Shown here one piece after another: positions 27,303 to 64,000 of a DNA stretch of 64,000 nucleotides; position 1 is the first letter of the stretch; each line of letters opens with the position of its first letter. The notes beneath the pieces are model-generated. The model searched no databases and was not told the origin of the DNA. It saw only the letters and a list, made by a program, of their open reading frames with translations. The translations under genes were made by a program, and so were the position numbers. Origin of the DNA: a plasmid; sequence record CP121101.1; one strand, 5' to 3'.

Positions 27303-27306
27303 TGCC

Positions 27307-31549: not shown

Positions 31550-32893
<1,344 letters not shown>

Positions 32894-40718: not shown

Positions 40719-40743
40719 GTGCAGCCGTCTTCTGAAAACGACA
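40719..40743 (-). repeat. Tn402 IRi, copy 2, abutting the tnpR interior
   Basis: gtgcagccgtcttctgaaaacgaca followed directly by tnpR codons (VVVHSMDRLARN). Confidence 0.8.
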
Positions 40744-41136: not shown

Positions 41137-41139
41137 CAC

Positions 41140-44113: not shown

Positions 44114-44146
44114 CGTACGATTTTTTCCGAATTCTGCGGGCTCCCC
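44109..44146 (-). repeat. Tn1721-type 38-bp terminal IR (right end)
   Basis: Reverse complement reads GGGGAGCCCGCAGAATTCGGAAAAAATCGTACGCTAAG. Confidence 0.8.
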
Positions 44147-45758: not shown

Positions 45759-46427
45759 CTATGCGCAGATCTTAACTGGGCGCGGCAACGGCTTACAGGC
45801 GATGATCGCGAGCTGCCATTCGTGGTGCTGGGGGCTACCCCATATCTTATCTGACAATGAAGCCAACTCAGCATCAGAACGGATCTGGTGCAGTTCGCCG
45901 GTCATCAGTTGATAGTGGTACACGTACAGCCGACGATAAAGCGCCTCGGACATTCTGGCCTTCCAGAAGTGCATACCTTCCCCAGTCTGCATGTTATCAC
46001 TCAGGATCACATCATAACGGGCCAGTATATAGCCGAAGAATACCGCAGACGGCAGATCTCGAAGTACAGCCTTGTGGTGCTGATTGAACGAACGCCAAAC
46101 CCGTTGCTGGGTGGCCGGGCGACATTTCAGATCTTCATAGTGAACGATGATCACCTGGTTGTAATAGGCGACCTCAGCCGTATGGTCATTGACCAAGGCG
46201 ATCTCGAATTTGTCGCCACCGAGTCGAGTAGTCACACAGACGAGGCGGTAGCCGGGCGGTAGAGCGATTCCCAACTCCGGCGCAATCTCCTGGATGTGCT
46301 CATGCCCCACCAGAGCTTGATACATCGCCCCGTTGGTTGCGGTCACTTCCAGGTCACGGAATGTTTCTGTGACCTTGTTTGCATCGATAATGAGTTGCGG
46401 CATAGCGTCTCGTAGTTGATTGCTCAT
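45759..46427 (-). CDS. hypothetical protein (222 aa)
   Basis: ORF flanked by hairpin terminators at 45722-45745 and 46474-46494. Confidence 0.45.
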   Translation of the reverse strand: MSNQLRDAMPQLIIDANKVTETFRDLEVTATNGAMYQALVGHEHIQEIAPELGIALPPGYRLVCVTTRLGGDKFEIALVNDHTAEVAYYNQVIIVHYEDLKCRPATQQRVWRSFNQHHKAVLRDLPSAVFFGYILARYDVILSDNMQTGEGMHFWKARMSEALYRRLYVYHYQLMTGELHQIRSDAELASLSDKIWGSPQHHEWQLAIIACKPLPRPVKICA

Positions 46428-46534
46428 ATTTGATTCATGCCTACTCTAACACTCTGGGGCGGGTGACTTCCATAATAATAGACAAAGCCCCGCAACGCGG
46501 GGCAGGACAACCAAAACGAACTGTGTCAGGCAAA

Positions 46535-46927
46535 TCACCGACTGATTTTATCCCGAGGCCTCATGCATTTGAGCCAAAGGCAATAGCAAGCGACTAGGGA
46601 ACCCAGGCAGTAGAGAATGAACGGCAGCACCATCCGATATGAGAAGGGGCTAGGAACCATGCTCGTCGGCGGAATTGACATTATCTTGAAGCTCTTGAAT
46701 TTCGTAGATTTTCCGTCTGCATCAGTCAGATTATAAGTCCCTTCCCAATCAATAGAGAGGTCACCTGCAAGAGTTCTATCATTCGGAAGCACGACTTCCA
46801 CATTGTGGCGAACAAAGCCAACCGATTGCCATTTCATCCCTAAGTGGATGACCCCTATCGCCATCCATAGCCAACACCCACCGGCCAACAAAATCACTGG
46901 CACATACCGAACTTGACTCAATTGCAT
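46535..46927 (-). CDS. hypothetical membrane protein (two predicted TM helices)
   Basis: 130-aa ORF with hydrophobic segments VPVILLAGGCWLWMAIGVIHL and VLPFILYCLGSLVACYCLWL. Confidence 0.4.
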   Translation of the reverse strand: MQLSQVRYVPVILLAGGCWLWMAIGVIHLGMKWQSVGFVRHNVEVVLPNDRTLAGDLSIDWEGTYNLTDADGKSTKFKSFKIMSIPPTSMVPSPFSYRMVLPFILYCLGSLVACYCLWLKCMRPRDKISR

Positions 46928-46998
46928 CTCTCCTAGAACACTAGAAATGTAACGTGGTAGCGATTGACTAGCAAACCACTGAAAATGTTTTTTTGGCT

Positions 46999-48972
46999 CT
47001 AAAGCTTCATTACCTTTTTCCTACGGCTTCCCGCCGCCGCCCGGTTCCAGTCATCCCGCTTATTGCTCTCAATTGATTCCCTTCCTGCTTCCCACGTTCC
47101 GCTGAAAAAATTGGCATCATCTGTTCTACCAACAGCGATTAAGGGGGTTACCAATCGTGAGAAATACACCCTCTTGTGAATCTGAGCCGCAACTTCAAGC
47201 GGCGATCGAGAAGAAGAGAGCATTTTTTTCAATCTGGCGATAGTGTCTGCGTTATCCCTATACCAGAAAGTGACACGAAGATGAGCCGGTTTAAGCGGTA
47301 TAGAGCGGAGAATCGTTTCAAATTCTGACTGTTTGCTTTTGCGTGGGTCATGGCTCGCGATTTGACGCAGCAGTGCGGCATCGGCATCACGCGCCACGAT
47401 TCAAACACCTTAGCTAGGCTGGTCAATTTGCGATCATCGCCCCCCTTGAGCAGGAGGCGAGCGCCGGCCGGTGACTTCTTGGCAGCCTTACGCAATCCTG
47501 ACATTATCCGCTCAACAGCATCCAGGTTGGCTGATAGCCACTCTTTAGGCTTGGTTCTGGCGGATGGACTCGTACTTGATGCCGTAAAACTGAGCCCTTG
47601 CAGTTCCTCCGCCACCTCAGTGCTATACGCCTTACCGCGACCCCGCTTTCTGGGCACATCGATTACTGGAAGTGTAAGGTCCGAATTTGCTACAGACCGA
47701 GCATCCCCGATTGAATGCGATTTAAAGTGAATTTCCGTTGAAAGTGTGAGTCGTTCATCACTTTCCTTTGACTTCACATTTCGATATTTAATATCGACAT
47801 CGATCAGTCCCGCACTCAGAAGTTCGTTAAGGGCCAATGAGAGTTGCCGGCGATCATTGTGGTTGTGCCGACCAGTCTCGCGTGGATGGATTTCACGCAG
47901 GAGCTCAAGAACCGTCATGGGCCGCAGATTCAGAAACACCCTGCGCCCCATTAGCTTGCCTGGCCTAGCTGCGATCCATAGAGCTAGCAGGCGAGCCATC
48001 TGAGAGTTCAACTGAATGACTGCACTTCGATTTATTGGGACGAGCTTTTTAGTGCTCAGATACAAGGTTCGCAGCTCTGGGGTCGGAGATATTTCGATGG
48101 TCCCATCAGGTTCCAACCTCAGAGTACCAACGATATTCGCAATCATGACCGATCTCTTTCGGCTAGTCTCATCCGCATCATCGAGCGTTGGGTAAAATAG
48201 AAGAGCAACGCTCTTTAGCCTTGCAAGCGAATCGACGATTTTTTTGTCCAACAGGTAATCTGACGGCCGCATATCCTCAGGAATCGGTGAGAAAAATCGC
48301 TCTATGGTCATACGAATTGGCTTGATGATGGCTTGCTCAAACCTCTCCTTTGACAGGCGCCCTAACCAATGAGTGATGCAGATATAAGAGACAAAATCCA
48401 TTTTGAGTGTTGAGGGTTGGCCCCCTCAGTGACATATAAGCGTGACCACTGCTAAGCGGAGTGGTCAGGTGGTAAATTCTATGCTCATCCAGTGCTGGTG
48501 GCGTCTTCCCGCTCGCAAGCACGCGGAACATCCCCGTTTTCAGGGTCATATCCAGGTGCAAATCAATGTTCTCAGGGGGAGGGCTGCGATCTGGGTACAA
48601 GGAGCGGGTTTGAACCCTATCGTACTCAACCAAGTAGTCCGTATCTTGTTCTATCACCACGGGAGCTCTTGTGTTAGCCACAGCAGTAGGTTCTGGGTGA
48701 TCCTTTTCTTCAGCTCCCCCTACATTGTGTTCATTGGCTTCATCCACCAGCAACGTCATTTTTTCCATTGCCGGCCAAATGATCTCTAGGGCTCGCTCTA
48801 CTGACAGCTCCGGTGCCGTCGACACAAAATTCAGCAGCATTGACACAGCCGACTTGTTAATTTTCGGTAAAAGTGGGGGCGCCATCACTTTGATGACGTC
48901 AGCACGAAATCCCTGTTTGGTTAAATACGCCTCTAAAATCGCATTCGCGCAGCTAATTTTATCAACGATCAT
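46999..48972 (-). pseudogene. rep: putative iteron-type plasmid replication initiator (Rep), apparently split by frameshifts into ORFs 48337..48972, 47229..48401 and 46999..47397
   Basis: Position immediately downstream of 7 iterons and an AT-rich GATC cluster. Overlapping consecutive ORFs on the same strand. No named family recognised. Confidence 0.45.
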
Positions 48973-49068
48973 GCGTCACCCCCCAACCTGTGCATATGCT
49001 GAATATAACCTGTTCAAAAGCTGTTTATAACCTGTTATCACCTGACAAAATAGTCTCGATAGAGACTC

Positions 49069-49222
49069 CGCGGCATAGTAGATAAGAGACCACGGCATAG
49101 TAGATAGCATATCACGGCATATAACATAGAGCATCACGGCATAGCATATAGAGCATCACGGCATAGTACATAGAGGAACGCGGCATATAACATAGCAGTG
49201 CACGGCATATTACATAAAACAG
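49069..49222. repeat. seven 22-bp iterons (C[A/G]CGGCATA + 13 nt) with exact 22-bp phasing; candidate oriV
   Basis: Copies start at 49069, 49091, 49113, 49135, 49157, 49179 and 49201. Confidence 0.8.
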
Positions 49223-49254
49223 AAAAAAGCCATATACATCACTAAGTTACAACC

Positions 49255-49345
49255 ACCCCATCTTTAAAGATCTTTAACAGATCAAAGATATTAAAAGATC
49301 AGTAGATCAAGAGATCAAAAAAAAGAGATCAATGATCTATAATAA
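49255..49345. promoter_or_regulatory. AT-rich region with 7 GATC (Dam) sites in about 90 bp, origin-unwinding-element-like. More GGATCC/AGATCT sites follow at 49370-49620.
   Basis: Direct reading: agatct, cagatca, agatcag, tagatca, gagatca, gagatca, tgatcta. Confidence 0.6.
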
Positions 49346-49850
49346 GTTGCAGTCGATCTCTTCTCGTTAGGATCCATTTTCGGATTCACAATCCGTTCGC
49401 AGCCCCTGAGCAAGCCTGATTTGAGCCCTAGACAGCTCTCAGATGGAAAGTAGACCCCGTGGCAATACGTTGGTATACCCCGGTGATGAGCGCCCTATAA
49501 ACCGCAATTCCAGCGATTTTATGACTGGGTGAATAACCGCTTAAAAACCGTCCCATCCTATCGGATCCAGACCATAGATCTACTGGATCCAACGTGGATC
49601 CATTTTTTAACAGGACCTCGTTTACCTCACACCATCAATAACCTACAGCTAATCGTTCAGTTCAAGCTTTTCGCTGTAGATCCAAGACACGTTGACCCCA
49701 TACTCTGAACTAGATCCTTAGCAGGGTATGCAAGGATCGATGATCTGAAGATAAAGCGACACAAACAGACGTCCTGAGTTTAAAACACGGTCTCATTCAG
49801 CATCTTCAAGATCCGATTGGGGTAACATATGCCTTTCGATTCGGAGGTAT

Positions 49851-51735
49851 TTGATGAGGACCTTAGCAAGGAAAGGCGATCCCACCAGCACTGGCGGTGC
49901 GATCCAAGACGGGGACAGCAGCTGGCTCAGCGAAGGCTCCCCAACCACCTATATCGGGATGATAGCGACCTGCCCAGCTTGCAAAGTCGGACAGGGCCCT
50001 ATCGTCGCCGTGGGCCCCCGCTCCATCATCGGCCCGGGCGGGCCGGTAGCACTGCAGGGCGATTATGTCGCTTGCGGCTGCCCGCCTATGAGCAACACCA
50101 TACTCCCCGCCCAGGGGACGACAGTCGGCGACAACAAAGGGCCTCGAGCGAAAGCAGCCAGCGCCCCAGCAGAACCACCAGCGCCAGCACCGGCCAGTTC
50201 GCCGGCGACCCCTCTTGTCCCGTTGGTTGACCCCGAGGAACACCGGATCGGCATCTTCTTCGATGGCACCCAGAACAACAGGCACAACAGCGAGCTCAGG
50301 GAGCAATGTGAAGAGGCAAGCGAGGCGGCCTGCAAATCCATAGAGAAGCTGATAGGCACTGAATCCTCATACGACGGCGGCCCAACCAACATGCCCCCGG
50401 CTGCATCAAGCCTATACCGGCCCAGCAATCTACATCGAGGGGATCGGCACTGCTGCCGGCAAGGCTGACACAAAGATCGACATGGCTTTCGGTACCGGTG
50501 CAACTGGCGTCATAGCCAGGTCAAAGGAAGGCCTGGCCAAGATCAGCACCATGATCGCCAGCCTACCCGCCGGCCCGGTAGCTGTGGATGTCTTCGGCTT
50601 TAGCCGGGGCGCTGCAGCTGCGCGACATTTCGTGAACATCCTTCTGGAATCGAACCTGGGGCGCCAGGTGCACGTCGCATTCGTTGGCCTCTTCGATACC
50701 GTAGCAGCCATAGGCCTGGACGCCAGCAATGACGAGAATGCGCCAGTTCGCCTCTACATTGCTCCCGGGGCCGCGGAGAAGGTTGTCCAGCTCGCCGCCA
50801 AGGACGAGTACCGGCTCAATTTTGCGCTTAACTCCGTACAGCCAGACCACACGGAACTCCCGCTATTCGGTACTCATAGCGACGTTGGCGGCGGGTATCT
50901 AGACCAAGTTGAGAAGACGCCAATCATGCGCCCCTATGATGCCATCCTGAAATTTGGTGATGACGCAGCCTATAAGAGATTCCAGGCTGCAGCCAACGCC
51001 AGGCTCCAGGAGGAAGCTATCCCTCTATACAAGGGATATGCGAAAGACAGCAGCCAAATAAAGCCGACCATCAGCTCTTTCTCCGTCGTATCCAAGAGCG
51101 ACGCGCCAATGGTGGGCTATGTGGCCAACGCGATCATGACGCGCACGGTCAAACCTGAACTGCAGCTGCTCGCCGGCCACCTTATGCAGACTATCGCGCA
51201 GGAAAGCGGAGCGCCGCTCACCCCCCTGTCTGAGCCGGTTCCCGGGGCGCTGGCCTTCTTGTTCGACAAGTACCTGGGCCTGTGGCATGGAAGCGGTGAC
51301 CTCAAACTGTCCAAGGAGCAAAACGAGATGCTGATGACGGAGTATGTTCACTGCTCCGATAACTGGACGCCGCTCGGCCCCCTCTACGTGAACGCCCCGC
51401 CCCTAGTAGGGTTCGTCGCGTCTACCAGCAAACACCAGGGAAGTGACCTTATGAAGCGAATAGTCAGTGTCCTAGCCCTCCCCCTCGCACTTGCAGCTTG
51501 TGGCGATACCCAGGAGAAGAAACAGCCCCGTAAGCCGCCAGAGGAGCGGGTGATCAGTGAGCCAGCTCATGGATTTGGCGTCCTTTTTGGCAAGCCAAAC
51601 CCCGATTACACACCGCCAGGGAGGCTAGTTGATAGCCCGGACTTTAAAGTGACTCTCCCAGAGGACCGCTGGGAAGAGGTCACTATCAGCAAAAAAGAGG
51701 GCAAGCCAAGCGCGGCGGCAGGTGTAGATAAGTGA
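49851..51735 (+). pseudogene. PAAR-domain / DUF2235 (Tle1-family phospholipase) fusion, a T6SS-type effector, with a +1 frameshift near 50400
   Basis: The N-terminus is PAAR-like (ARKGDPTSTGGAIQDG, CPACKVGQGPIVAVGP). The DUF2235 hallmarks are IGIFFDGTQNN and DVFGFSRGAAAARHF (GxSxG). ORFs 49851..50468 and 50482..51735. Confidence 0.65.
51451..51735 (+). CDS. putative lipoprotein (94 aa; MKRIVSVLALPLALAAC lipobox) encoded in-frame at the 3' end of the effector ORF; candidate immunity protein
   Basis: Canonical signal peptide with an L-A-A-C lipobox beginning at an internal ATG at 51451. There is no stop codon between it and the DUF2235 domain in this sequence. Confidence 0.35.
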   Translation: MKRIVSVLALPLALAACGDTQEKKQPRKPPEERVISEPAHGFGVLFGKPNPDYTPPGRLVDSPDFKVTLPEDRWEEVTISKKEGKPSAAAGVDK

Positions 51736-51974
51736 GAGCTCGCTGGGCTGTCACTCTCCTGGCGACAGTAGGGGTCTTGGCCATAGCCACCCTGTTTTAC
51801 ACTAGGTCAGATCTACCGAAGGCGGAAAGGCCAGGTATCACCTCCTCCAGTCATGGAGTGGGTGTCCTGTTAGGTTCGCCACAGTACCAGGTGAAAGGTG
51901 AGCTGGTGGAGGGGGGCTTTCTGGATAAGCAGCTGGACGAGAAGGGCAGTACGGAATTGGACGAATACCAGTGA
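51732..51974 (+). CDS. small membrane-anchored hypothetical protein (80 aa)
   Basis: ORF with an N-terminal TM helix (WAVTLLATVGVLAIATLFY). Its start overlaps the upstream stop. Confidence 0.35.
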   Translation: MRARWAVTLLATVGVLAIATLFYTRSDLPKAERPGITSSSHGVGVLLGSPQYQVKGELVEGGFLDKQLDEKGSTELDEYQ

Positions 51975-52003
51975 CACTAGGCCGGCCAGCTGCAATGATG
52001 AAC

Positions 52004-52023
52004 CAATCAATCAATCAATCAAC
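52004..52023. repeat. (CAAT)4-CAAC tetranucleotide repeat 12 nt upstream of the start codon of ORF 52035
   Basis: ccaatcaatcaatcaatcaac followed by an acGGAGGgcaagtgATG RBS and start. Confidence 0.85.
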
Positions 52024-52034
52024 ACGGAGGGCAA

Positions 52035-52409
52035 GTGATGTCCTTTACTGCGATCACCCTTGAGGCCGCCCTGGCCATTGAGCCGGCCAAGCTATCTGGC
52101 GTCATAGACGGGGTACCGGTCAACCCGGCCAAGCCACCAGCCAGAGACATCAAGCACGACGAGCGTGAGCCCGAAGAAATGATTCTGTGGTGGCGCCAAC
52201 CGTACCTGCAATGGAATAGCAATGGGCACTGGGATGTTAGATGCCTCGATGGCGGCGCATGGGATCGCCCCACGTTCATAGGTAACCATGAAGAGCTGGC
52301 CGGTGCCATAGAGCTGGCCAAGAAGCCTACCCGCGCCTATGCCATAGGGGAGCGGCAGGCCCTGGAGAGCGGCGAAGCCCTAATGAGATCGCTGGGGCTT
52401 GATGAATGA
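52035..52409 (+). CDS. hypothetical protein (124 aa)
   Basis: ORF with a GGAGG RBS. Confidence 0.4.
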   Translation: MMSFTAITLEAALAIEPAKLSGVIDGVPVNPAKPPARDIKHDEREPEEMILWWRQPYLQWNSNGHWDVRCLDGGAWDRPTFIGNHEELAGAIELAKKPTRAYAIGERQALESGEALMRSLGLDE

Positions 52410-53090
52410 GCCAAGGGCGCCACATAGGCGCCCTTGTTCTGAGATGAAAACAAGCAGTAAGCTTAACTTTGGTAGGGCACTATAAGCTCAGAGCCCTGAC
52501 AATCGCCCGTTTCGCATCTGTCCTAGTAAGGGCCTTAATAGTATGTGTGGCCCTGCTCAGTCTTGGGGCTAGAGTGACGTGACAAAATGGAATGACGCCG
52601 GCTAGATCACTGGTCACCACATGGGATCCCGGAGTCCAGTAAAACTCGTCGCCCCTACACACCCAACAATGCCTCCCATCAAGCTCGCCGGTGTACTCTA
52701 AATCGGATTGCCTCATAGTTACTCCAAACTCGCCTTTGGTTCCTGGTGGTTACCACTCCAGGATCAGAATATGGCCATGGATTCTCCATATGGCCGTGCT
52801 TGACGCCTGAGTTACCAATTAGCTCTGATTTTCATCATCCAACCCTTCAGCGGTATACCCAACCATGGAGTTTTGGTACCGAACCGCAGCTGTATGGATG
52901 GATACGGATTGAAGAGAATAGCCCCGCCGCAGCAACGACTGCAGACAGCCATGGGTCAGACCCCGTGTTAGCTAGACCAAGTACCAGAAGCATGATGCCA
53001 ATGCCGATCATGTGGCTGGCAGTTACAATGCCATGGGTTCGCAGTCTAGCAATCATTCTGTTCATTTGTGGCGTTCATTCCTCGTCGCAA

Positions 53091-53648
53091 TCAAGCGTTG
53101 AAGTGGTTCAGAAGCTGAAGGCGATCCATTAATCTCTGGGCATTTTTATCCTTGCTCCGAGAGGAATCATCCCGTGTTCGGTCGTTCTTATCAAAAAGCG
53201 CTCTCAAGCTAGCTATGCCTCTCAGGGAGGCTTCATATCGAGACCGGCTCATGATTTCCCTTACTTCTCGAATAACAACCTTACACTCGTGCTCATCCAG
53301 CCAGCCTATGCCCCGGCGAGTATATGGCAGGCTCAGAAGGTGCTGCATCCATGCATAGGCTTCGTGCTTATTCATTCTGCCGGAATCGATCAGGGTGTTG
53401 ATGCTGGTATGTGCCTCGCGCCTCGCCAATCGGGTTTCCCTGTTGGCAACAGAACCGATCGCGATGTCAGTTCCTTCTCGGCAGCTAACGTAGCTATCGC
53501 AGGCATCACGGTTGCAACGGTAGATCATCGCTTTAGCCGGCGCGGCAGGATACACCACCTGTTTTCTGACGAGCTCCAGAGGAGCGCCACAATAGCGGCA
53601 GTCCTTTGGATGAAAATGACTATTTGCTGTGTTGCGAGCCATATGCAC
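53091..53648 (-). CDS. hypothetical zinc-ribbon protein (CxxC...CxxxxCxxxxxC)
   Basis: 185-aa ORF; CRYCGAPL...CNRDACDSYVSC. Confidence 0.4.
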   Translation of the reverse strand: MHMARNTANSHFHPKDCRYCGAPLELVRKQVVYPAAPAKAMIYRCNRDACDSYVSCREGTDIAIGSVANRETRLARREAHTSINTLIDSGRMNKHEAYAWMQHLLSLPYTRRGIGWLDEHECKVVIREVREIMSRSRYEASLRGIASLRALFDKNDRTRDDSSRSKDKNAQRLMDRLQLLNHFNA

Positions 53649-54417
53649 AATCCTGATGAGAGGGTTGTAGCCATTGTCTCGTGGTACTCAGGAATGCAAG
53701 TTTGAGTTGCAGCCATGCCGGCTGTGAAAACCCTGCTAGGCCCGGGTAAGGGGTTCTACACCCGGGTGTGTAGTTGGGAGTGCAAAACGATCTCGGGTTT
53801 AGCCCAAAAATAACCTTGCTGCAGATTGAAGCCGAGCATTTGAGATGAGACAGCTTGGTTGTAGGTTTCGATGCGTTCAGCGATGATGGGGATCCCCCCT
53901 TCCTCATACAAGTATCAATCCCTTCCAGCATGCAGGAGGTGTAGCCGTTCGTCTGGCCACACTCAAACTTCACTATGTCCCATTCAAAATCATGCAGCCG
54001 TGTAAGCGTGGAGTATTTCGTGCCGAAATCATCCATGACAAGTTCGACACCCATCGATCTTAGGCTATCCCATCGTTTTTGGAGCGTAGAGGGGGTGACC
54101 TGCTCGGTGACTTCAACCAAGATGTTGTGCTTGCGGGCCAGCTTGAGGATCAGAGTGCGCCATTGATGGAATCGGCGCTCAACTGCCAAGGTATGCTCAC
54201 TCACATTGACCAGTAGGTTCAATTCCCCCTTAAGGAGCTGGTCCGCGAGATCGAGAACGGCCTTATCAATGTCGAACCAGGAGTGGTAATCGGAGGTTGG
54301 AGGGGAGAACCTTGATAGGCCACTATTTCTCGCAAGCAACTCATAGGCATGAATCACCTGTTTCTCTGTGTCGAACACTGGCTGCCTAGCAATGAGCATT
54401 AACTTTGGTCCCCTCAA
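53620..54417 (-). pseudogene. EAL-domain (c-di-GMP phosphodiesterase) protein, C-terminal part degenerate or frameshifted
   Basis: EAL signatures QPVFD, ELLAR and VMDDFGTKYSTL are present in the first about 170 aa. The tail lacks EAL motifs. Confidence 0.5.
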
Positions 54418-54841
54418 AAATTACCGCGAGAGAGTCTACCCCTCTGACGCCGAGTAAATCCTATGGTGAAATCGTGAGCTATTTCTGATGTGAGTTATCC
54501 ACAGAATTGCTGGATAAGTAGCCTGTGAACGTGTGGACAGTTCGCTGCAGCCATTGCTAGGACTGTGTTATTGGCAGCCCTTGGCTGCAGCGCATTTGAT
54601 TTGGGCTATCTAGCACCAGGGAAGCCGATCAGAGGCCAGGTCATGACATCAGCAAGCAGATCTTCGTATTCAGACAGTGCCGCCCGGCCGAGAGCTATCT
54701 GCAGCTTGATTAGGTTGGTAGCCAAAGCCGTGAAACCGACCGCCTCGGTACAACTGCTTTCGCCATTACGCGCCGCGGATAAAATGTCAAAGGAGTGATT
54801 AAACTCGGGCTGCCGGGCAGCGGCATGGATGGCATCGTAGA

Positions 54842-55405
54842 TCAAAGCAAGCCGCGATATGGACTCAAAGGCCAGTTCCGGGAATGTATCCGGAGCTGAG
54901 CCCCCATCGTGTGGCCAAAAAATGGTGCAATGACGGATCCTGCCTGGCAGGACAAGTCACTCGAGATTTTCTCGATGCTTTCCAGCATTGAATTCAGAAA
55001 TTCCTGAGAATACCCGGCCCCCTGATCACCCAATTGCAGCAACACGTCGTTCTTAATTTGCTCCTCAATGGACATCAGGATCAGTTGATACGAGGCATGC
55101 ACTGCTCGTACACAAGCCGTCAATGGCTGGTGAGGAATGAGCTCCTTATGCCAGGTGGCCAGGGGATGGGACTTCAGTTCCGCATTGTCTGCGTCGGAGT
55201 AGGAGTAAGTTACGAGCGAACGGCCATCGAGGTATATGATGTTGTGCACCATGACTATAAAGCCGTTCTTCGTGAGCCACAGTGAACCGGCTCTGACCCT
55301 CGAGTCACCCTGGTCTGCGGTGTTGGGTCGTGTGTCTATTGCGGTCATTTTATTCCTCTCAACATTAGTGAATTGTAAGGCTGCGATGGTGCAGTTCGCG
55401 GGCAT
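54842..55405 (-). CDS. hypothetical protein (187 aa)
   Basis: ORF only. Confidence 0.3.
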   Translation of the reverse strand: MPANCTIAALQFTNVERNKMTAIDTRPNTADQGDSRVRAGSLWLTKNGFIVMVHNIIYLDGRSLVTYSYSDADNAELKSHPLATWHKELIPHQPLTACVRAVHASYQLILMSIEEQIKNDVLLQLGDQGAGYSQEFLNSMLESIEKISSDLSCQAGSVIAPFFGHTMGAQLRIHSRNWPLSPYRGLL

Positions 55406-55670
55406 CGATCAAGTATCGGTACCGGTATAGCTCGCTGGCTTGTTGGTTCAACGGCACCAATACCCACTCCACGTCGGAATGACAGATGATGGAGAAGCAG
55501 TGATCGTTGATGATGAAAATATCACCGGGGAAGTGCCGGCATTTAGATAGGAAATCATCACGCTGAGCCAACGTCAGTGGCTTGCACTCTGCGTAGTTGA
55601 GGATTTTTTCCCGTTCGCAAACCTGCACCGGCAGGTCTATGGTGGTGGCGATTGCTTTACTGAAGTCCAT
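55365..55670 (-). CDS. hypothetical protein (101 aa)
   Basis: ORF only. Confidence 0.3.
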   Translation of the reverse strand: MDFSKAIATTIDLPVQVCEREKILNYAECKPLTLAQRDDFLSKCRHFPGDIFIINDHCFSIICHSDVEWVLVPLNQQASELYRYRYLIDARELHHRSLTIH

Positions 55671-55907
55671 AGGGTCCCCCCATTTTTATTGATAAGTTGG
55701 TGACAGGATAAATTGCTTTTTTGCAATGCAAGGGGGGCCCATCCTGGGCGGCAAGTACCTGAACAGCTTCAAAACGAGAGGGCGAGTGCACCGGAACTAT
55801 GTGGCCGGTGCCTGGGAGTTTGTGATTGATTGGAGGGAAGGGGGGGTAATCAAATTCATCCTGCCGGTGGTTCTAGATCTAGGCAGGCAGGGGATGCAAT
55901 CCTCGGG

Positions 55908-56183
55908 CTATAGGGACTTCAGTAACAGTGCGCGGAGAAAGTCCTGCTGTGAAATTGAGCAAGCTTTGAACCCGCGAAACACACCATTATCGACCAGGAT
56001 TTCGTCATACCGGCCAATGGTATCTCGATAAACAAGACGTCGCTTTCCAATACCGCCGACCAACTCATCAACCGTGCGCACAACCTGTTCGGCTGAATTC
56101 GTGATTGTGGCGCAGAGGTCTAGATCCAGAAGGAGCAGCATGGTCTCGTCCTGGTACACGATTTCAAAAACGGGTGTTGGCAA
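55908..56183 (-). CDS. hypothetical protein (91 aa)
   Basis: ORF only. Confidence 0.3.
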   Translation of the reverse strand: MPTPVFEIVYQDETMLLLLDLDLCATITNSAEQVVRTVDELVGGIGKRRLVYRDTIGRYDEILVDNGVFRGFKACSISQQDFLRALLLKSL

Positions 56184-56559
56184 TTGTCTGCTCCCTATAC
56201 CTCTGTTGAGCCAACCCAGGTATCACCAAGGTAAGCATCCGCACCCCGGAGGCGCTCCAGAGGGATATCTAGGGAAGGTGCGAATAAGTGGTTAGCACCT
56301 TCGTCTTTGATAGTTAGGTCGATTTTTGACTCGTCCCATTTCTAACATTGCCCTATTTTCTTCAAAAATCAGGATTTATAACCATTTTCACCTCTTATCT
56401 GTGGGTATTCCTCGATTTTAGGTAGATCTTTTCTGTGCTCTTATCAATTGGTCTACTCGAAACAGGTTCGCTAGCGTAAACAACATCGCCAGTTGAATGT
56501 CGTTCTTCATCAGCCCCTTGTACCGCGCTTTGACGAAGCTGAGTCGCCCCCAGTTCCCT

Positions 56560-57615
56560 AGACACCTTACAGCCTTAAAATGAGGCAATTATTGGGGGTG
56601 TTATGACCAGTCAGCGTTGTCCAGAAACATTCAAAATCGAAGCTGTGAAACAAGTCACCGAGCGCGAGCGGCCTGTGGCTTATGTTGCACGAGCCCTCGG
56701 GGTATCCAGCCACTGCCTGTATGTTTGGCTCAAGCAGTACGGTAAGCCTGCTGACCAACAGCATGGAGAGTCTGCCTTGCAGGCGGAGATACGCCGCCTA
56801 AAAAACCGAACTTCGCCAAGTCATAGAGAAGCGCAATATTCTAAAGGGAGCAGCGTACTTTGCCAGCGAGTCAAGGAAAGGTACGCGTTCATAACCTCCT
56901 GACTCGACCAGTACAATGTCGTTACCCTGTGCCAGACCCTGGGGATTCACCGAAGTGGCTTCTACGCGTGGCTGAAACAACCCGCATCGTTACGCCAGCA
57001 GGAGGACGAACGGCTGACAGGATTGGTCAAACAATCCTGGCTGGAAAATGGTGCTGTCTATGGTTACCGCAAGATCTATCGCGATCTCCGTGACATGGAG
57101 GAAGCCTGTGGGAAGCACCGTGTGGCCAAATTAATGAAGCGGGAGGGTTACGTTCGCAAACTGGTTATCAGCGTTGTAAGGAGCATTATGGTGGCAAGAG
57201 CCCGCTGGCGGCCCCGAACACGCTGGCACGTCAGTTTAAGGTTCCAGACCCTAACATCTCCTGGGTAACTGACATTACCTACATCCGCACTCAAGAAAGG
57301 TGGCTGTAGTGCTCTCGCCAGATCGTCTGGCTGGACGATGAAGCCACGCAGCCGGCGGACCTAGCGGTTGGCGCGCTCTTGATGGCTATCTGGCGCCGCA
57401 AGCCAAAGCAGCCGGTACTGGTGCATTCGGATCAGGGCAGCCAGTTTACTCGCTCACTGATCTTGCTGTCGCTGCCGTGGATATTACCGAGGAAATCAAT
57501 GCGCCAGATGATACCGGTGTCCGAGTCTTTGATATTGCCAAGTGAATTCTCAAATAGCCCTGATTCTGGATCATTGGGTATCGTGTCTTGCTACATCATT
57601 GGTTTACCATAACAG
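56560..57615 (+). mobile_element. decayed IS3-family insertion sequence (orfA intact to about residue 60, orfB in at least three frames)
   Basis: OrfA HTH (ORF 56603..56902). OrfB remnants WLENGAVYGYRKIYRDL (57023..57268) and HSDQGSQFT (57379..57612). Confidence 0.6.
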
Positions 57616-57683
57616 CCAATCGAATCTGAATCCTACCCTCCCTACCGTGGGTGTGACATTGCAGTAGAACACCAAGGATCATC

Positions 57684-60371
57684 ATGGCCGTCAATCAGAC
57701 CAAAATCTCCGATGACTTGAAAGCGTTGGTCAACGCACCTGACAAATCCGAATTTATCTTTGGCTTTATGGCCGCCTATGGGCTGCCCAAGGCCACGATC
57801 ACGCATATCAAGCAAGGGGGAAATCGCAACCTGGCCAAAGAAGCGGGCCACGTTGGCATCAACTCAAAGTTCTACTTTCAGCCGGTGAATGAAGGGACCG
57901 ACATCGAGCTCCTTTTTGAACAGCGGATTGCAGCGTGTGCCAGCACCAAGCACAAATACCGCTTCGTCATCCTCACCGATTTTGTTCGCTTCCTCGCGTG
58001 GGACGTTCTGACTGAGGAGAGACTCGATACTGAGCTCGGCGAACTGTTCCGCGAATATGGTTTCTTCCTACCCTTAGCAGGCCTTGAGAAGGCGATTCTG
58101 GGTGCCGAGAACCCAGCCGATGTGAAAGCTGCCGAGAAGATGGGCAAGCTCTTCGATCTCATCAAGAGCCTCAACGAATTGAGTAGACCTGAGGATATTC
58201 ATGCCCTCAACGTATTTCTGACGAGGCTGTTATTTTGCCTGTTTGCCGAAGATACGGGGATTTTCGAAAAGGGTCAGTTTACCTCTGCCATCAAGGGCTA
58301 CACAGAAGACGATGGCAACAACCTCGATCAGTTCCTGAGTGACTTATTCGCTGTCATGAATAGCGAACCCAATAGTGACTTGCGCAAAAATCTGCCGTCT
58401 CATCTGGCAGCCTTCCCCTATGTAAACGGTGGGCTGTTCGCGGTGGATGAACCCATCCCGTCGCTTGGCAAGCAGGGCCGCAAGATCCTGCTGGAATGCT
58501 GCATGATGAACTGGGGGGAGATCAACCCGGATATCTTCGGTTCAATGTTCCAGGCGGTGATTGATGTCGAGCAGCGCGGGAATTTGGGCCAGCACTACAC
58601 CTCGTATAGCAACATCATGAAGGTGATCCAGCCACTGTTTCTGGATTCACTGCGGGCCGAGTTGGAAAAGAATCGAAAAAGTACCAATGGCCTCAAGAAA
58701 CTGCTGGTGCGGTTGGGTAACATCAAAGTTTTCGATCCCGCCTGTGGTTCGGGTAACTTTCTGATCGTCGCTTATAAAGAGTTGCACACACTTGAGCGGA
58801 TGATCATTCAAGCCCTACAACAGCTTGAACCACAGCAGGGCTTCTCCATGAGCAGCCTGCACCTTGATCAGTTCTATGGTATTGAGATAGACGACTTCGC
58901 CTGTGAAATCGCCCGCCTTGCACTCTGGCTGGCCGAACATCAGCTTAACAAGCAGTGGGAGCAAACCTTTGGTTATGCACGCCCAGCGCTACCGCTGAGA
59001 TCATCCGGCAATATCGTGAGCGGTAACAGCCTAGTGCTGGATTGGCATAACGTTTGTCCCAAAGGCATTGAGGATGAAGTCTATGTGATCGGCAATCCAC
59101 CTTTCTTGGGAACATTGGGACGCAGCGATGAACAGCGATCCAATATGCAGGCAGTATTTGGTGATGTCGTTTTGGGTACTATGGATTTTGTCGCCTGTTG
59201 GTTCTGGAAGGGAGCTAAGTACATCCAGAACTCCTTCGCTGAGCTGGCATTGGTCTCAACGAACTCTATCTGCCAAGGTGAGCAGGTGGCTGCACTCTGG
59301 CCTCCAATTTTTAACTTGGGGCTGAATATTCACTTCGCTTATCCGACCTTCCCGTGGGCTAACAATGCACGTGACAAGGCAGCAGTCCATGTCGTTATTG
59401 TAGGTCTTTCCGCAAGGGACAAATCGAGACGGTTATTTCAATTTGTTAATGGTGAATGGCATAGCTACAACGTCAGCAATATCAGTCCCTACCTGGTGAA
59501 AGGCAGCAATATCGCTATAGCACCACGAAACAAGCCACTTACAGAGGGCATTCCACCACTAAGTAACGGTAGTAAACCTACGGATAACGGTCATCTGTTT
59601 CTAAATAGGGAAGAATATGATGAACTGCTAAAGATTGAACCTCAGGCTAAACGCTGGATCAAAAAATTCTTGGGTGCAGACGAGTTTTTGAACGCTAAAG
59701 AGCGCTGGTGCTTGTGGCTAGCTGGCGCTACCGAAGAAGACTTACGGGGTATGCCTATAGTTCAAAAGCGGGTGGAAGCGGTACGAGTCTTTCGTCTTGC
59801 AAGTACAAAAGAAAATACGGTTAAACGAGCAGAGATTCCCCATCTATTCGATCAGGACAGGCAACCAACCTCAGGAAGTTATATTCTGATGCCTCGCGTT
59901 TCATCATCAGAGCGTCGTACCTATGTTCCATTAGGGTTTTACAGCGTTGATGTCATTTCATCTGATCGCAACTTCATCCTTCCCAATGGTTCGCTCTATG
60001 AGTTTGGAGTTCTTTCATCTCTGATTCATAACGATTGGATGCGACTGGTAGCCATGCGTCTTAAAAGCGATTACAGCTACGGAAATAAGGTTGTATATAA
60101 CACATTCCCTTGGCCAACAGCGTCTATTGCTCAACAGACAGAAATAGAACGGATAGCGGAAGAATTGCTTCTTACACGGGAAGATTACCCTGGCAAGACT
60201 TTGGCCGAACTCTATGACCCCGACAAAATGCCTGCTGGGCTGCTTGAAGCACACCGGGCACTGGATAGCGCTGTCGATAAGCTATATCGGGATCGCCCCT
60301 TTAAGGATGCTGCGGAGCGGGTAAGCCATCTGCTCGGGCTCTATGAAAAGCTAACCGCTGCTACCCTCTAG
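57684..60371 (+). CDS. MmeI-like Type IIL/IIG restriction-modification enzyme (N-terminal nuclease-like domain + gamma-class N6-adenine methyltransferase + target-recognition domain (TRD)), 895 aa, intact
   Basis: Motif I DPACGSGNFL and motif IV VIGNPPF. N-terminal YRFVILTDFVRFLAWD resembles the MmeI-family D/E/K region. AAGGA RBS. Confidence 0.65.
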   Translation: MAVNQTKISDDLKALVNAPDKSEFIFGFMAAYGLPKATITHIKQGGNRNLAKEAGHVGINSKFYFQPVNEGTDIELLFEQRIAACASTKHKYRFVILTDFVRFLAWDVLTEERLDTELGELFREYGFFLPLAGLEKAILGAENPADVKAAEKMGKLFDLIKSLNELSRPEDIHALNVFLTRLLFCLFAEDTGIFEKGQFTSAIKGYTEDDGNNLDQFLSDLFAVMNSEPNSDLRKNLPSHLAAFPYVNGGLFAVDEPIPSLGKQGRKILLECCMMNWGEINPDIFGSMFQAVIDVEQRGNLGQHYTSYSNIMKVIQPLFLDSLRAELEKNRKSTNGLKKLLVRLGNIKVFDPACGSGNFLIVAYKELHTLERMIIQALQQLEPQQGFSMSSLHLDQFYGIEIDDFACEIARLALWLAEHQLNKQWEQTFGYARPALPLRSSGNIVSGNSLVLDWHNVCPKGIEDEVYVIGNPPFLGTLGRSDEQRSNMQAVFGDVVLGTMDFVACWFWKGAKYIQNSFAELALVSTNSICQGEQVAALWPPIFNLGLNIHFAYPTFPWANNARDKAAVHVVIVGLSARDKSRRLFQFVNGEWHSYNVSNISPYLVKGSNIAIAPRNKPLTEGIPPLSNGSKPTDNGHLFLNREEYDELLKIEPQAKRWIKKFLGADEFLNAKERWCLWLAGATEEDLRGMPIVQKRVEAVRVFRLASTKENTVKRAEIPHLFDQDRQPTSGSYILMPRVSSSERRTYVPLGFYSVDVISSDRNFILPNGSLYEFGVLSSLIHNDWMRLVAMRLKSDYSYGNKVVYNTFPWPTASIAQQTEIERIAEELLLTREDYPGKTLAELYDPDKMPAGLLEAHRALDSAVDKLYRDRPFKDAAERVSHLLGLYEKLTAATL

Positions 60372-60377
60372 CCAATT

Positions 60378-62430
60378 TTGACAAGGATTCAAGCATGGAA
60401 ATTCATCTTGCAAGTGACCTATGCCCAGAACGGGCAGAGCTCGGCGCTTAACGGCATGGGAATGCGGGAGATGCAGGCCCGCGCCTTCGCTCAACGCAAC
60501 AGCCCCTATCTGCTTATCAAAGCGCCACCCGCCTGCGGTAAATCCCGTGCACTGATGTTTTTGGGGCTGGACAAGCTGCTCAATCAAGGTCTGCGCAAAG
60601 TCATCGTCGCGGTGCCTGAGATGTCTATCGGCGCATCGTTTAAAGACACTGCGTTGACCGAATACGGATTCTTTGCGAACTGGCAGGTTAAACCTGAAAA
60701 CAATCTCTGCATTCATGGCGGTGAAAAGAGCAAGGTGGCCGCATTTAAGCGTTTTATGGAGAGTGATGACCAGATCCTTGTCTGCACCCACGCCACTCTG
60801 CGTTTCGCTTTTGACGAGGTAGATATCGCCTCGTTTAACGATTGCCTGATTGCCATCGACGAGTTTCACCATGTTTCCGCCAGTGAAGATAGCCGCCTCG
60901 GAGCGCGCTACTCGACGGCTTAATCCAGCAGTCCAATGCACATATCGTTGCCATGACGGGATCTTATTTCCGTGGCGATACTGTGCCTATCCTGACACCA
61001 GAGGATGAAGCCAAGTTTACCAAGGTCACCTACACCTATTACGAACAACTGAATGGCTATGAGCACCTGAAATCCCTCGGCATTGGTTACCATTTTTATC
61101 AGGGTAAATACATCGGTGCTCTGCCTTCGGTGTTAAACGCTTTCCTGAAAACCATTATTTACATCCCGAACGTGAATTCTAGTGAGTCCACCAAGGACAA
61201 ATATACCGAGGTCGATGCGATCTTGGATGTGCTGGGCGAGGTGCAGTCGAAAGATCCCGACACTGGCATCTACTTGGTGAAACGACATGAAGATGGCAAG
61301 CTGCTCAAAGTAGCCAATCTGGTGGATGACGATAATGAACGCCCCAAGGTGCAGGCTTATTTGCGCACCATTCAATCGGCTGATGATATGGACATCATCA
61401 TTGCTGGCTTGGCATGGCAAAAGAAGGCTTTGACTGGCCCTATTGCGAGCATGTGCTGACCATTGGCTATCGCAGTTCGCTGACCGAAGTCGTGCAGATC
61501 ATCGGTCGTGCGACCCGTGATTGTCCTGGTAAGACCCACGCTCAGTTCACGAACCTGATTGCCCAGCCCGATGCCCAGGATGACGATGTGAAGGTGTCGG
61601 TCAACAACATGCTCAAGGCGATCACGACATCCCTGCTGATGGAGCAGATCCTAGCCCCCAGTATTCAGTTTAAGCCTCGCTCGCAGTGGACTGGGGAGGC
61701 ATTGCCACCCAATACCGTGCTCGTTGGTGATGCGACCGTGCCGGTCTCGCAAACAGTGTTAGATATTCTCAATGGTGGCAAAGAGGAGATCCTGGCTGCA
61801 CTGATGGCCAAGGAGAAGGTGGTCAAAGAGGCAATTACTGAAACAGCTCCGCCCGAGGTATTTACTCAGTTAGAACTGCCCTCGGTCATTCAGGAGCTCT
61901 ACCCCGATCTATTGCCCCATGAGATAGAGCAAGTTCGTTCCGGCCTGCTACAAAGCATGTATATCAATCAACAGGGAGGGCTGATCAATGAGAGTGACTT
62001 GCCTCCCGATGCCGAGATTGTAGGAAGCCCGAACCCCACCTCTATCGGAGGGGCAAGCCCCGATGCCGCCAAGGATCAAGCAACCGCCAGTAAGCAGTTC
62101 TTAAAAATCGGCGAGAAGTTTATCAACATCGACAACCTGAGCATCGACCTGATCGAATCGGTTAACCCGTTCCACGGGGCCTATGAAATCCTCTCCAAAT
62201 CCGTGACGGCCACCATGCTCAAGACCATTCAGGAAGCGGTCAGCGCCAGCAAGTCACAACTCTCCGAGGAGGAGGCCGTCATGCTATGGCCGAGGATCAA
62301 GGAGTTTACTCAGCAAAACCAGCGTGCGCCTTCGTTGCATGCACCTGATCCCATCGAGGTACGACTGGCAGAAGCGCTGGCCTACATCAAACAGAAGAAA
62401 CAACAATCTGCGGCTAAACAGGAGGACTAA
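60378..62430 (+). pseudogene. SF2 (DEAH-type) helicase split into three ORFs by frameshifts near 60923-60953 and 61414-61459
   Basis: Motif I PPACGKS, motif II DEFHH, motif VI QIIGRATR. Confidence 0.6.
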
Positions 62431-62433
62431 GTA

Positions 62434-63716
62434 ATGATCCTGTTGCGATCGCATCAGCTCAAACCCAAAGCGTCTCTTGAAGATATCTTTGCCGAAGACG
62501 ATGTATTGGGTCTGCTCGATGTAGAGCCCCTAAAACCGAAAAGCGCGCCAGTTGACCTAGTGAGCAACCAGTTTGGGGATATCGTGGCGTTTTTTGAACA
62601 ACACGGTAGAGCCCCCCAAAACTCGACCTGTGCCGATATGCCCGAGAAGCGTCTTGCAAGGCGCTTGCAGGCGATACGCACGGATCCAAAGCAATGCAGT
62701 GCCCTTTCAGGTCAGGATATCCATGGTCTGCTGGCAGACATAGAAGTAGTGGGGATGGTTGCCGAGGAGCATGAGCAATATCCTGCCAGGGGAGTAGGTG
62801 TTGAGACTGTTAATGCACCCACCGTTGATACGTCGGAGCTGGTGACCTCGCTTGACGATATTTTTGCCGATGATGACCTCGGGTTATTGGATTTTGATAC
62901 CCCTGATATTTCAGCATGCAGCATGTGCCTAGAGAGAAAAAGGAGTTACCCGACGAGATAGCCCAGCGTCAGCCCTGTCCGGATTTTTCCCGCTTTGCAC
63001 CGCTGTTTGAGACCGTGAAAGCAGGTCTGCAAGGCCAAGAGTTCTCCCTCGCGCGCTATCGAAACGAACACGGTTTTCAGGTGGGTGATTTTTTCATATT
63101 GAATGGGGTTATGGGCTATGTGCATAGTGCCGGGGAGCGGCTAGAGCAGTACGAGCGATACAACGCACGACTTCACCTGGTTTTCGATAATGGAACAGAG
63201 CTGTACATGCTCTACCAGTCACTGACCCAGGGGCTTATTCGTGACAAGGAAGGTCGTAAGGTCATGCTAGGTGACAAACTCCTCTTGCCAAATGATGCAC
63301 CTATTCCAAGCGGTTTTGTATATGTACTCGCGACAAAGAGCACTGACCCGGTATTGATGCCCTTCAAGCAAAATCTCTACAAAATAGGTTTCACCGAAAG
63401 CTCTGTTGATGAGAGGATAAAGAATGCCGAGAAGGATAGAACTTTTCTGCAAGCACCAGTCCGTATTGTGACGACTTTCCAATGCTTCAACATGAACACG
63501 CACAAGTTGGAGACCTTGGTGCACGGCTTTCTCGCCAAGCAGCGCCTCGATATAACCTTAAAAGGGCAGGATGGCACCAGCTACACCCCGAGAGAGTGGT
63601 TTTACACTCCATTGGCAACAGTTCTTGAAGTTATTCAACACATTTTGGATGGGACTATTTCGCAGTACCGAATGGACAACACCACGGGGAAGATTGTTGC
63701 CAAAAAACTTCCATAG
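62434..63716 (+). pseudogene. protein with an N-terminal internal repeat (IFAEDDVLGLLD / IFADDDLGLLD) and a C-terminal T5orf172/GIY-YIG-like domain; two overlapping ORFs suggest a frameshift near 62930
   Basis: ORFs 62434..62961 and 62916..63716. GFVYVLAT...LYKIGFTESSVDERIKN pattern. Confidence 0.45.
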
Positions 63717-63761
63717 TTTTACGTTTTGACCCTTTGGAAAGTCGAGGAAGATACTCAGAAC

Positions 63762-63845
63762 ATGCTGAAATTCTTATCTACCCTAATCGCACTGGCCGCA
63801 CCGCTGGTGGTGTGGATAACGATGTCGCTGGTCATGATTGTTTGA
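63762..63845 (+). CDS. 27-aa hydrophobic peptide (MLKFLSTLIALAAPLVVWITMSLVMIV), speculative
   Basis: ORF not in the track (under 60 aa). GAGGAAG lies 12 nt upstream. Confidence 0.2.
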   Translation: MLKFLSTLIALAAPLVVWITMSLVMIV

Positions 63846-64000
63846 CTGATTTATCATCAAAAAAGGAGTGATTATGTTCAAAATTACTGGACTAGACACA
63901 CTGAAAAAAAAGAACTGGCTGAAACCCAACGTGCTTTAGCCGAATTGGATGGTGAACTGGGAACTGTCAGTTTCAACCCTCACAATCCGGCCAGTATCGA

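Follow-up and report, generated by a model that had tools for sequence, protein, structure and literature searches.

The subject of this work is a group of three consecutive genes on the + strand of a 64,000-nt stretch of plasmid DNA (sequence record CP121101.1; the whole stretch is referred to here as the window), located between positions 57684 and 63716. We conclude that this locus is very probably an ordinary trio of the YeeA(DnmA)-YeeB-YeeC type, made up of an MmeI-like DNA methyltransferase with a fused target recognition domain (TRD), a superfamily 2 (SF2) helicase and a T5orf172 (GIY-YIG-like) protein, that the frameshifts interrupting the last two genes are non-biological indels, and that a mechanism resembling that of type I restriction-modification (RM) systems can be predicted for it. 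The combination is already known, and the locus adds a further member to a widespread three-gene family. An earlier note, made from the sequence alone, had singled out the same region as a candidate defence island; its three consecutive genes were confirmed by the map of open reading frames (ORFs) and by Pfam, and the motifs it quoted (DPACGSGNFL, VIGNPPF, PPACGKS, DEFHH and QIIGRATR) are found where it had placed them.

The three genes and their products

On sequence grounds, the assignment to the YeeA-YeeB-YeeC type is made by domain content, synteny and source names: a methyltransferase of the MmeI kind, with a TRD and without a PD-ExK motif, is followed on the same strand by a DEAD/SF2 helicase and then by a GIY-YIG/T5orf172 gene. 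The link to the Bacillus subtilis proteins runs through proxies, namely trio loci of Bacillota (Staphylococcus, L005; Ligilactobacillus, L008; Bacillus mediterraneensis, L026), the source name 'YeeB' carried by helicases closely related to that of Staphylococcus, and a locus in Moraxella osloensis such as Morgan et al. (2009) had cited. The features of the module, in window coordinates, are the following:

57578..63707, + strand: three-gene module of 6.1 kb (blastn against pAsa4-family plasmids and contig L091)
57684..60371, + strand: MmeI-family N6-adenine DNA methyltransferase with TRD, YeeA/DnmA type (Pfam, PDB 5HR4)
57846..57887, + strand: segment GHVGINSKFYFQPV, facing D70...E80-x-K82 of MmeI, with none of the three residues present (profile-to-PDB alignment)
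58734..58763, + strand: S-adenosylmethionine-binding motif I, DPACGSGNFL (sequence reading; inside the MmeI_Mtase match)
59085..59105, + strand: catalytic motif IV, NPPF, within VIGNPPF (sequence reading; aligned with NPPF of MmeI)
59502..60119, + strand: TRD (Pfam MmeI_TRD, aa 607-812)
60395..62430, + strand: SF2 (DEAD/ResIII-type) helicase, YeeB type, 676 aa after removal of three indels (tblastn, Pfam)
60525-60545, + strand: Walker A motif, PPACGKS (sequence reading)
60858-60872, + strand: DEFHH (sequence reading)
61495-61518, + strand: motif VI, QIIGRATR (sequence reading)
62284..62388, + strand: C-terminal helical module of the helicase, ~40 aa, ...F..QNQRAP......E.RLA.AL..I (hidden Markov model, HMM, of the N-terminal segment of YeeC-type proteins)
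62434..63716, + strand: YeeC-type protein, 427 aa after restoring one deleted base
62476..62523, + strand: acidic motif 1, LEDIFAEDDVLGLLDV, aa 15-30 (alignment, sequence reading)
62572-62676, + strand: helical module of the YeeC-type protein, near its N-terminus
62851..62895, + strand: acidic motif 2, LDDIFADDDLGLLDF, aa 140-154 (alignment, sequence reading)
63312-63644, + strand: T5orf172/MUG113 (GIY-YIG-like) domain (Pfam; T5orf172 E = 5e-13, MUG113 E = 6e-16)

The first ORF encodes 895 aa as written, its true length being probably 894 aa. Five Pfam domains were matched (MmeI_N, MmeI_hel, MmeI_Mtase, MmeI_TRD and MmeI_C) and the protein aligned with the MmeI structure 5HR4 over residues 64-892 (E = 4e-203), with no alignment of its first ~60 residues to MmeI in phmmer; motifs I and IV of the methyltransferase are intact. 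The catalytic residues of the MmeI nuclease are D70, E80 and K82 (Morgan et al., 2009; PMC2731913), and the corresponding columns hold H56, Q66 and V68 in the window protein. In the pairwise alignment, L78-I-E80-M-K82 of MmeI stands opposite Y-F-Q66-P-V68, and a profile built from the N-terminal domains of 40 helicase-linked homologues, which aligns with MmeI residues 25-212, also places D70 opposite the H56 column. Among 52 family members, the D70 column contains E or D in 44, the E80 column K or R, and the K82 column V, A, E or T; the ExK catalytic residues (E80/K82) are thus missing here and across the whole helicase-linked group. To judge from its residues, the N-terminal domain is related to the nuclease domain of MmeI but catalytically dead, and these replacements make the protein a methyltransferase with a TRD and not an endonuclease. 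Of the single-chain endonuclease-methyltransferase-TRD protein described in the earlier note, the last two parts are borne out by the five MmeI domains and the endonuclease is not, so the label of an intact MmeI-like Type IIL enzyme has to be dropped. The stretch YRFVILTDFVRFLAWD, which had been taken for a nuclease-like region, is not a catalytic motif: its place is downstream of the catalytic positions, and MmeI and the nuclease-less group alike conserve it.

The TRD is the most variable part of this protein. Its identity to the copies of the pAsa4-family plasmids (L001 and L002) is 68-70%, versus 90-95% for the N-terminal, spacer and methyltransferase domains, which suggests that this allele reads a recognition site other than theirs; the mosaic points to exchange or diversification of specificity. 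Fast divergence of this kind is what diversifying selection typically produces in RM specificity subunits. Among the methyltransferases of the protein database the closest is P0241 (894 aa), with 98% identity.

The helicase gene as written falls into three reading-frame pieces (60378-60923, 60953-61459 and 61414-62430), and the same three frames were shown by tblastn with the intact pAsa4 helicases. Its start is the ATG at 60395, 23 nt past the methyltransferase stop as in pAsa4, and not 6 nt past it as previously proposed; this codon is hidden because of a +1 insertion at 60402. As written, the first piece matches ResIII and DEAD; in the corrected protein Pfam recognised ResIII, DEAD and Helicase_C and matched no nuclease domain. 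Identity to helicases from four phyla, proteins named YeeB among them, is 46-53%. A PDB sequence search with the helicase profile returned nothing at E <= 0.01, and Foldseek of the AlphaFold2 model of a YeeB-type helicase, P0001 (mean predicted local distance difference test score, pLDDT, 65), returned generic SF2 helicases with template modelling scores of about 0.2, the weak top match being EcoR124I HsdR.

The third gene as written consists of two pieces (62434-62961 and 62916-63716). The layout of its product comprises two acidic motifs, a helical module, a conserved middle domain, and the C-terminal T5orf172/MUG113 domain, in which G..Y (GFVYV), LyKIG, R, N, E..H and P.EWF are kept in at least 90% of 65 homologues. 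The duplicated acidic motifs and the T5orf172 domain pointed out in the earlier note are real: the form D-D-I-F-x-D-D-x-L-G-L-L occurs twice, and both positions are conserved among the 65 aligned members of many phyla. An HMM of the N-terminal module of these proteins matched 78 of 79 helicases at their very C-terminal end, with E < 1e-3 in 38 cases, and gave no match in shuffled helicases or in methyltransferases; the helicase and the T5orf172 protein therefore have in common a module of ~40 aa, which may be a shared docking element. Its consensus across the family, in both places (62284-62388 and 62572-62676), is F..x.GRxP......E.RLA.AL..L/I. An AlphaFold2 model of a YeeC-type homologue, P0121, made from a 45-sequence alignment, had a mean pLDDT of 57, and Foldseek of this model against the PDB returned nothing at E <= 0.001; the model showed weak similarity to small beta-barrels and to 1zg2, a protein with a GIY-YIG domain, which was set aside.

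The earlier note considered that this might be an undescribed combination, although it had been described in 2009 and studied since. Morgan et al. (2009; PMC2731913) distinguished two sets of MmeI homologues, one with the PD-ExK motif and no conserved neighbours, the other without the nuclease motif and always found next to a DEAD helicase and a GIY-YIG protein, of which B. subtilis YeeA/DnmA-YeeB-YeeC is an example, and they proposed for the latter a type I-like system with single-strand modification. YeeA was later renamed DnmA and found to make N6-methyladenine (m6A) at GACGAG (Nye et al., 2020; PMC7261158), and the synteny of dnmA-yeeB-yeeC was reported to be conserved (Fernandez et al., 2023; PMC9973331). 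A search of the literature from 2021 onwards for an MmeI-like protein together with a helicase and phage gave no result.

A tblastn search of the helicase against plasmids gave 264 records from many genera, and in five of five diverse plasmid loci (Moraxella, Staphylococcus, Rhodococcus, Acetobacter and Ligilactobacillus) the trio was found in the same order. A helicase-profile scan was then done with one genome per species over ~186,000 species genomes, where the methyltransferase and helicase searches gave at least 8,000 candidates each; 570 of 600 candidate stretches were confirmed, so that the helicase is present in at least 570 of the species genomes scanned. Synteny was counted in 80 loci of 80 species out of these. 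Where 1 kb or more of sequence was available downstream of the helicase, a T5orf172 gene was present there in 73 of 73 loci; where 3 kb or more was available upstream, an MmeI-like methyltransferase was present there on the same strand in 60 of 61. The sole exception (L041, Sulfurimonas sp. CS5, 1-5000) had no MmeI-like methyltransferase within 5 kb and carried upstream an 862-aa P-loop/helicase-like ORF and an AlbA_2-type gene. In a Ligilactobacillus salivarius plasmid (L008, 2-4494) several MmeI-like fragments, one of them on the opposite strand, precede the helicase in place of a single methyltransferase gene, which could reflect decay or shuffling of TRDs or segments.

The gap between methyltransferase and helicase is a recurrent insertion point for guest genes, 0.5-3.7 kb of which, co-directional with the trio, were present in 19 of 68 loci (L018-L086). 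They included RhuM (six loci), Schlafen-AlbA_2 with HATPase_c_4 (six loci), Fic/DOC, AAA_21, YhcG/DUF1016 and AIPR; in M. osloensis (L004, 2064-4414) the gap holds RelB/YafQ and a DUF4433/macro-domain pair (DarTG-like). Genes for RhuM, Fic, AlbA_2, AAA_21, DUF1016 and AIPR proteins are kinds embedded in type I RM operons.

At closer range, window positions 57578-63707 correspond to 7979-14103 of L001 with 88.8% identity and to L002 with 87.0%, and positions 57547-63706 to contig L091 with 94.2% (blastn), the homology of the module ending 9 nt short of the T5orf172 stop codon. Identity of the whole module to the cassette of pAsa4-family Aeromonas plasmids is 87-90%, and these genes are annotated there as intact DNA methyltransferase, helicase-related protein and GIY-YIG nuclease family protein of 896, 677-678 and 431 aa. 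That the 6.1-kb module moves together and is syntenic across phyla supports, at the level of gene order, the view that the three genes are one functional unit. The linkage proposed in the earlier note is thereby upheld; the first protein lacks the catalytic nuclease residues, and its neighbours are conserved.

Frameshifts and the 500-nt indel lattice

Comparison of the cassette with both pAsa4 copies revealed four window-specific frameshifting indels, three in the helicase and one in the T5orf172 gene (60402 +1, 60901 +2, 61406 +2 and 62909 -1), in addition to an in-frame insertion in the methyltransferase. The earlier note had described the first gene as intact and its partners as frameshifted; the indels are there in the sequence as given, but they belong to a lattice artefact in which the first gene also has its share:

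59901..59903, + strand: +3 insertion (TCA, an extra Ser), in frame, in the TRD of the methyltransferase; 401 mod 500; probable artefact
60402, + strand: +1 insertion (T), three codons past the helicase ATG; 402 mod 500; probable artefact
60901..60904, + strand: +2 insertion, helicase; 401-403 mod 500; probable artefact
61405..61407 (61406), + strand: +2 insertion, helicase; 405-406 mod 500; probable artefact
62909..62910, + strand: 1-nt deletion, T5orf172 gene; 409 mod 500; probable artefact

The only off-lattice differences in the cassette are at 57645 (1 nt, non-coding) and at 59168 (3 nt, in frame). The same spacing could be observed far outside the module. Between 44146 and 56272, where the window is compared with the Aeromonas plasmid pAER-f909, gaps outnumber substitutions and lie at 44395, 45402, 47396, 48401, 50393, 51394, 52894, 53894 and 54901, that is, at 393-402 mod 500, with one off-phase gap, a CAAT tandem-repeat difference at 52004. 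Against a second and unrelated reference, Klebsiella pKPS30 in its class 1 integron/TnAs1 region (identity 99.7-99.8%), indels were found at 34345, 34840, 35351, 35848, 37343, 39340, 39841, 42849 and 43857, corresponding to 340-357 mod 500 with one exception; they hit sequence that is conserved across thousands of plasmids and damage conserved resistance genes, with a +2 frameshift in a copy of intI1 and an in-frame +3 in sul1. The lattice indels are 1-6 nt long, span window positions 34345-62909 and in many cases duplicate adjacent bases. When the 27 window-specific indels were scored against three independent reference sets, a Rayleigh test at a period of 500 gave R = 0.71 (p = 3e-7), and no signal was obtained at periods of 300, 400, 450, 550, 600, 700 or 1000. 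The four frameshifts of the cassette all fall at 401-409 mod 500; given a 31-nt band as predicted by the neighbouring region, P for this is about 1.5e-5.

Once the four indels (6 nt) are taken out, the three ORFs read through at 895, 676 and 427 aa, and after this correction there is no other lesion, stop codon or off-lattice frameshift in 6 kb. The indels are missing from six relatives at 87-97% nucleotide identity, and the annotated L001, L002 and L091 have intact genes. The 242-kb contig of P0241 carries an intact trio of 894, 677 and 427 aa with 94% nucleotide identity to the window, and its comparison with the window shows the same five indels plus one natural in-frame indel; two further contigs confirmed the first two of the five as present only in the window, and the +3 at 59901 and the +1 at 60402 are missing from L001, L002, L091, L092 and L093. 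The one residue by which P0241 is shorter than the window protein fits a spurious +3 at 59901. Since the frameshifts fall on a window-wide 500-nt lattice, they are almost certainly non-biological sequence-assembly indels and not the result of gene decay, and since undoing them restores full ORFs, the trio is probably intact in the organism, with products of 894, 676 and 427 aa.

Several long-read polishers work in 500-nt windows, and we presume that the lattice arose from the stitching of consensus or polishing windows of this size; duplications of adjacent bases are expected from faulty stitching of consensus windows. No specific description of errors at polishing-window boundaries was found in the literature. 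The lattice makes every pseudogene or frameshift call in the window suspect and in need of checking against it, for example the second copy of intI1 and possibly the IS3 element described below.

Plasmid context of the module

The feature immediately upstream of the module is:

56273..57577, + strand: ISAs5-like IS3-family insertion element or remnant (IS3 transposase features in ORFs; 86-87% identity to ISAs5 copies)

The host backbone is, to judge from its identity to pAER-f909 (99.8% over window positions 44146-56272), that of an Aeromonas-type multiresistance plasmid. Backbone homology stops at 56272 and module homology begins at 57578, and the ISAs5-like element is exactly the 1305 nt between the two; it is context, outside the three-gene system. 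Its transposase shows several reading-frame switches, some of which, near 56900 and 57400, may be lattice artefacts. In pAsa4 the module is preceded by mobH and topoisomerase III, and in the window by this element. A multiresistance region at 25248-44146, whose identity to Klebsiella pKPS30 is 99.7-100%, makes up the high-GC half of the window and carries ISCR1, sul1, qacEdelta1, arr-3, catB3, blaOXA-1, aac(6')-Ib-cr, intI1 and TnAs1. It contains the class 1 integrase region in two copies, at 25387-26400 and at ~39519-40535; the former is intact (337 aa, 100% identical to pKPS30) and the latter, at ~39.5-40.5 kb, has its reading frame broken by the on-lattice +2 at 39841.

A lone T5orf172 gene, ~90% identical to window positions 62492-63707, was found on a Klebsiella pneumoniae plasmid (L003, 8070-9236) and on ~35 other plasmids of Klebsiella, Raoultella and Citrobacter, where it adjoins ISApu1 and IS26 and is accompanied neither by the methyltransferase nor by the helicase. 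Megablast against complete genomes of Escherichia coli gave no match, a tRNA scan of the window found none, and a promoter/terminator scan of 57300-64000 gave fewer sites than shuffled sequence.

A predicted type I-like mechanism and its alternatives

The module shares with B. subtilis DnmA-YeeB-YeeC the three components, their order and orientation, genes that abut or overlap, and a location on mobile elements and in defence-rich neighbourhoods. It differs in being gammaproteobacterial and plasmid-borne, in a helicase with about 47-53% identity to homologues of Bacillota and other phyla, in its TRD allele and hence its predicted site, and in the artefactual indels of the sequence as written. 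Its nearest relatives, in pAsa4 (NC_009349), pS44-1 (NZ_CP022176) and contig CBCZDW010000052.1, have the same gene order and 87-94% nucleotide identity over the module, and the pAsa4-family and CBCZDW010000052.1 copies have intact genes (894-896, 677-678 and 427-431 aa); the pAsa4 copies differ from it in plasmid location and in a TRD only 68-70% identical.

In type I RM systems such as EcoR124I, as in the trio, modification/recognition and motor subunits are separate, the ATPase is of the SF2/ResIII type and similar guest genes are found. Unlike them, the trio has no separate HsdS, its TRD being fused to the methyltransferase, its nuclease is a separate GIY-YIG-type protein whereas HsdR carries a motor-fused PD-(D/E)xK nuclease, and the recognition site is contiguous and asymmetric in its characterised relatives; the locus is thus not a type I system in the strict sense. 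Type ISP enzymes (LlaGI, LlaBIII) also combine a nuclease, an SF2 motor, an adenine methyltransferase and a TRD and methylate one strand, but do so in a single polypeptide with an Mrr-type nuclease, and the trio consists of three polypeptides with a nuclease of the GIY-YIG type. BREX, DISARM and MADS were considered and rejected because the matches were partial and the partner genes absent: the first protein gave weak matches to PglX and DrmMI, with NCBIfam BREX scores of 22-31 bits against cut-offs of 400-900, and to mad2; no BREX or DISARM model matched the partner proteins, no PglZ, BrxC, BrxL, DrmA, DrmB or DrmC was found, and there were no MADS partner genes. NCBIfam holds no specific family for any of the three proteins.

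The mechanism that we envisage follows the proposal of Morgan et al. (2009; PMC2731913). The methyltransferase would read a short asymmetric site and methylate one adenine on one strand, thereby marking self DNA; the predicted modification is m6A on a single strand. At unmodified sites the dead N-terminal domain would dock or signal, so that the helicase is recruited or licensed, moves along the DNA with ATP, and the GIY-YIG/T5orf172 subunit cuts; restriction would thus be type I-like, but with the nuclease carried by a subunit of its own. Candidate assembly interfaces would be the acidic motif pair (D-D-I-F-x-D-D-x-L-G-L-L) and the helical module of ~40 aa common to both partners. A type I-like character is favoured by the ResIII match, the kinds of guest genes and the GIY-YIG-type residues kept in at least 90% of the 65 homologues; the EcoR124I HsdR match in Foldseek is a weak point in the same direction. 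We put forward tentatively, as a possibility, that the Aeromonas trio is an active restriction system, in which the nuclease-dead methyltransferase directs motor and nuclease to unmodified asymmetric sites through the dead domain, the acidic motifs and the helical module.

Several facts weigh against this proposal or the evidence under it. Neither YeeA nor the M. osloensis homologue cut DNA as an endonuclease when alone (Morgan et al., 2009; PMC2731913), deletion of dnmA caused no growth defect and left plasmid transformation efficiency unchanged (Nye et al., 2020; PMC7261158), and deletion of yeeB or yeeC did not alter infection by three phages (Fernandez et al., 2023; PMC9973331). Phage genomes show no depletion of the DnmA site (PMC7261158, PMC9973331), and no member of the family is known to restrict DNA or to act against phages. 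Low confidence in both AlphaFold models (pLDDT 57 and 65) makes the structural support weak; neither partner protein has a model of its own in PADLOC 2.0, and their matches there, to PbeA, Cas3 and PDC-S57, were weak; and the case for an artefact is made from the geometry of the indels, not from reads.

Three other explanations have to be set against this one. The near full-length match of the first protein to the PADLOC Type IIG model PDLC03598 (E = 4e-298) and its five MmeI domains would be expected of a self-sufficient MmeI-type Type IIL RM enzyme with two unrelated genes downstream. About 830 residues indeed align, covering the helical spacer, the gamma-class N6-adenine methyltransferase, the fused TRD and the C-terminal domain, and modification is probably on one strand only in both. 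However, H, Q and V stand in place of D70, E80 and K82 of the PD-ExK nuclease, subgroup members lacked endonuclease activity, and the two neighbours recur in 73/73 and 60/61 loci, a constancy not reported for the PD-ExK-bearing homologues (Morgan et al., 2009; PMC2731913), so we regard this explanation as practically discarded. Also very improbable is that the frameshifts are real, the helicase and nuclease genes pseudogenes and the methyltransferase a surviving orphan, the reduction foreseen in the earlier note. The indels are present in the sequence as given, and DnmA acts as a functional orphan methyltransferase in B. subtilis, which makes such an end state biologically plausible; against it, the four frameshifts and the in-frame +3 sit at 401-409 mod 500 on a lattice that crosses 30 kb of unrelated sequence, many of its indels duplicate adjacent bases as stitching errors do, none of the cassette indels appears in any relative examined, and undoing them restores complete ORFs with neither a stop codon nor an off-lattice frameshift in 6 kb.

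The remaining explanation, which we consider unlikely though deserving of attention, accepts a real and intact trio with a role outside defence, the methyltransferase being an epigenetic regulator and its partners acting in repair, in plasmid or mobile-element maintenance or in addiction. The negative restriction and phage tests in B. subtilis, and a DnmA motif that phages do not avoid, keep such a role among the rivals; DnmA-dependent m6A affects promoter activity (PMC7261158, PMC9973331), and plasmids and other mobile elements often carry the module. Opposed to it are the order and co-orientation with a sequence-specific methyltransferase, strict across phyla, a TRD whose divergence far outpaces that of the remaining protein (68% vs 90-95% identity), the insertion of RhuM, Fic, AAA_21, AIPR and DarTG-like guest genes in the operon, in which it is similar to type I RM loci, and the enrichment of defence genes in DnmA neighbourhoods (PMC9973331).

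Defence-annotation tools that score the methyltransferase only would call such loci 'Type IIG RM' despite the missing catalytic residues. The trio is common, and a plasmid-borne enterobacterial or Aeromonas allele would be a convenient test case for the type I-like hypothesis. The restriction idea dates from 2009; what would be new, if true, is a working example together with its assembly interfaces.

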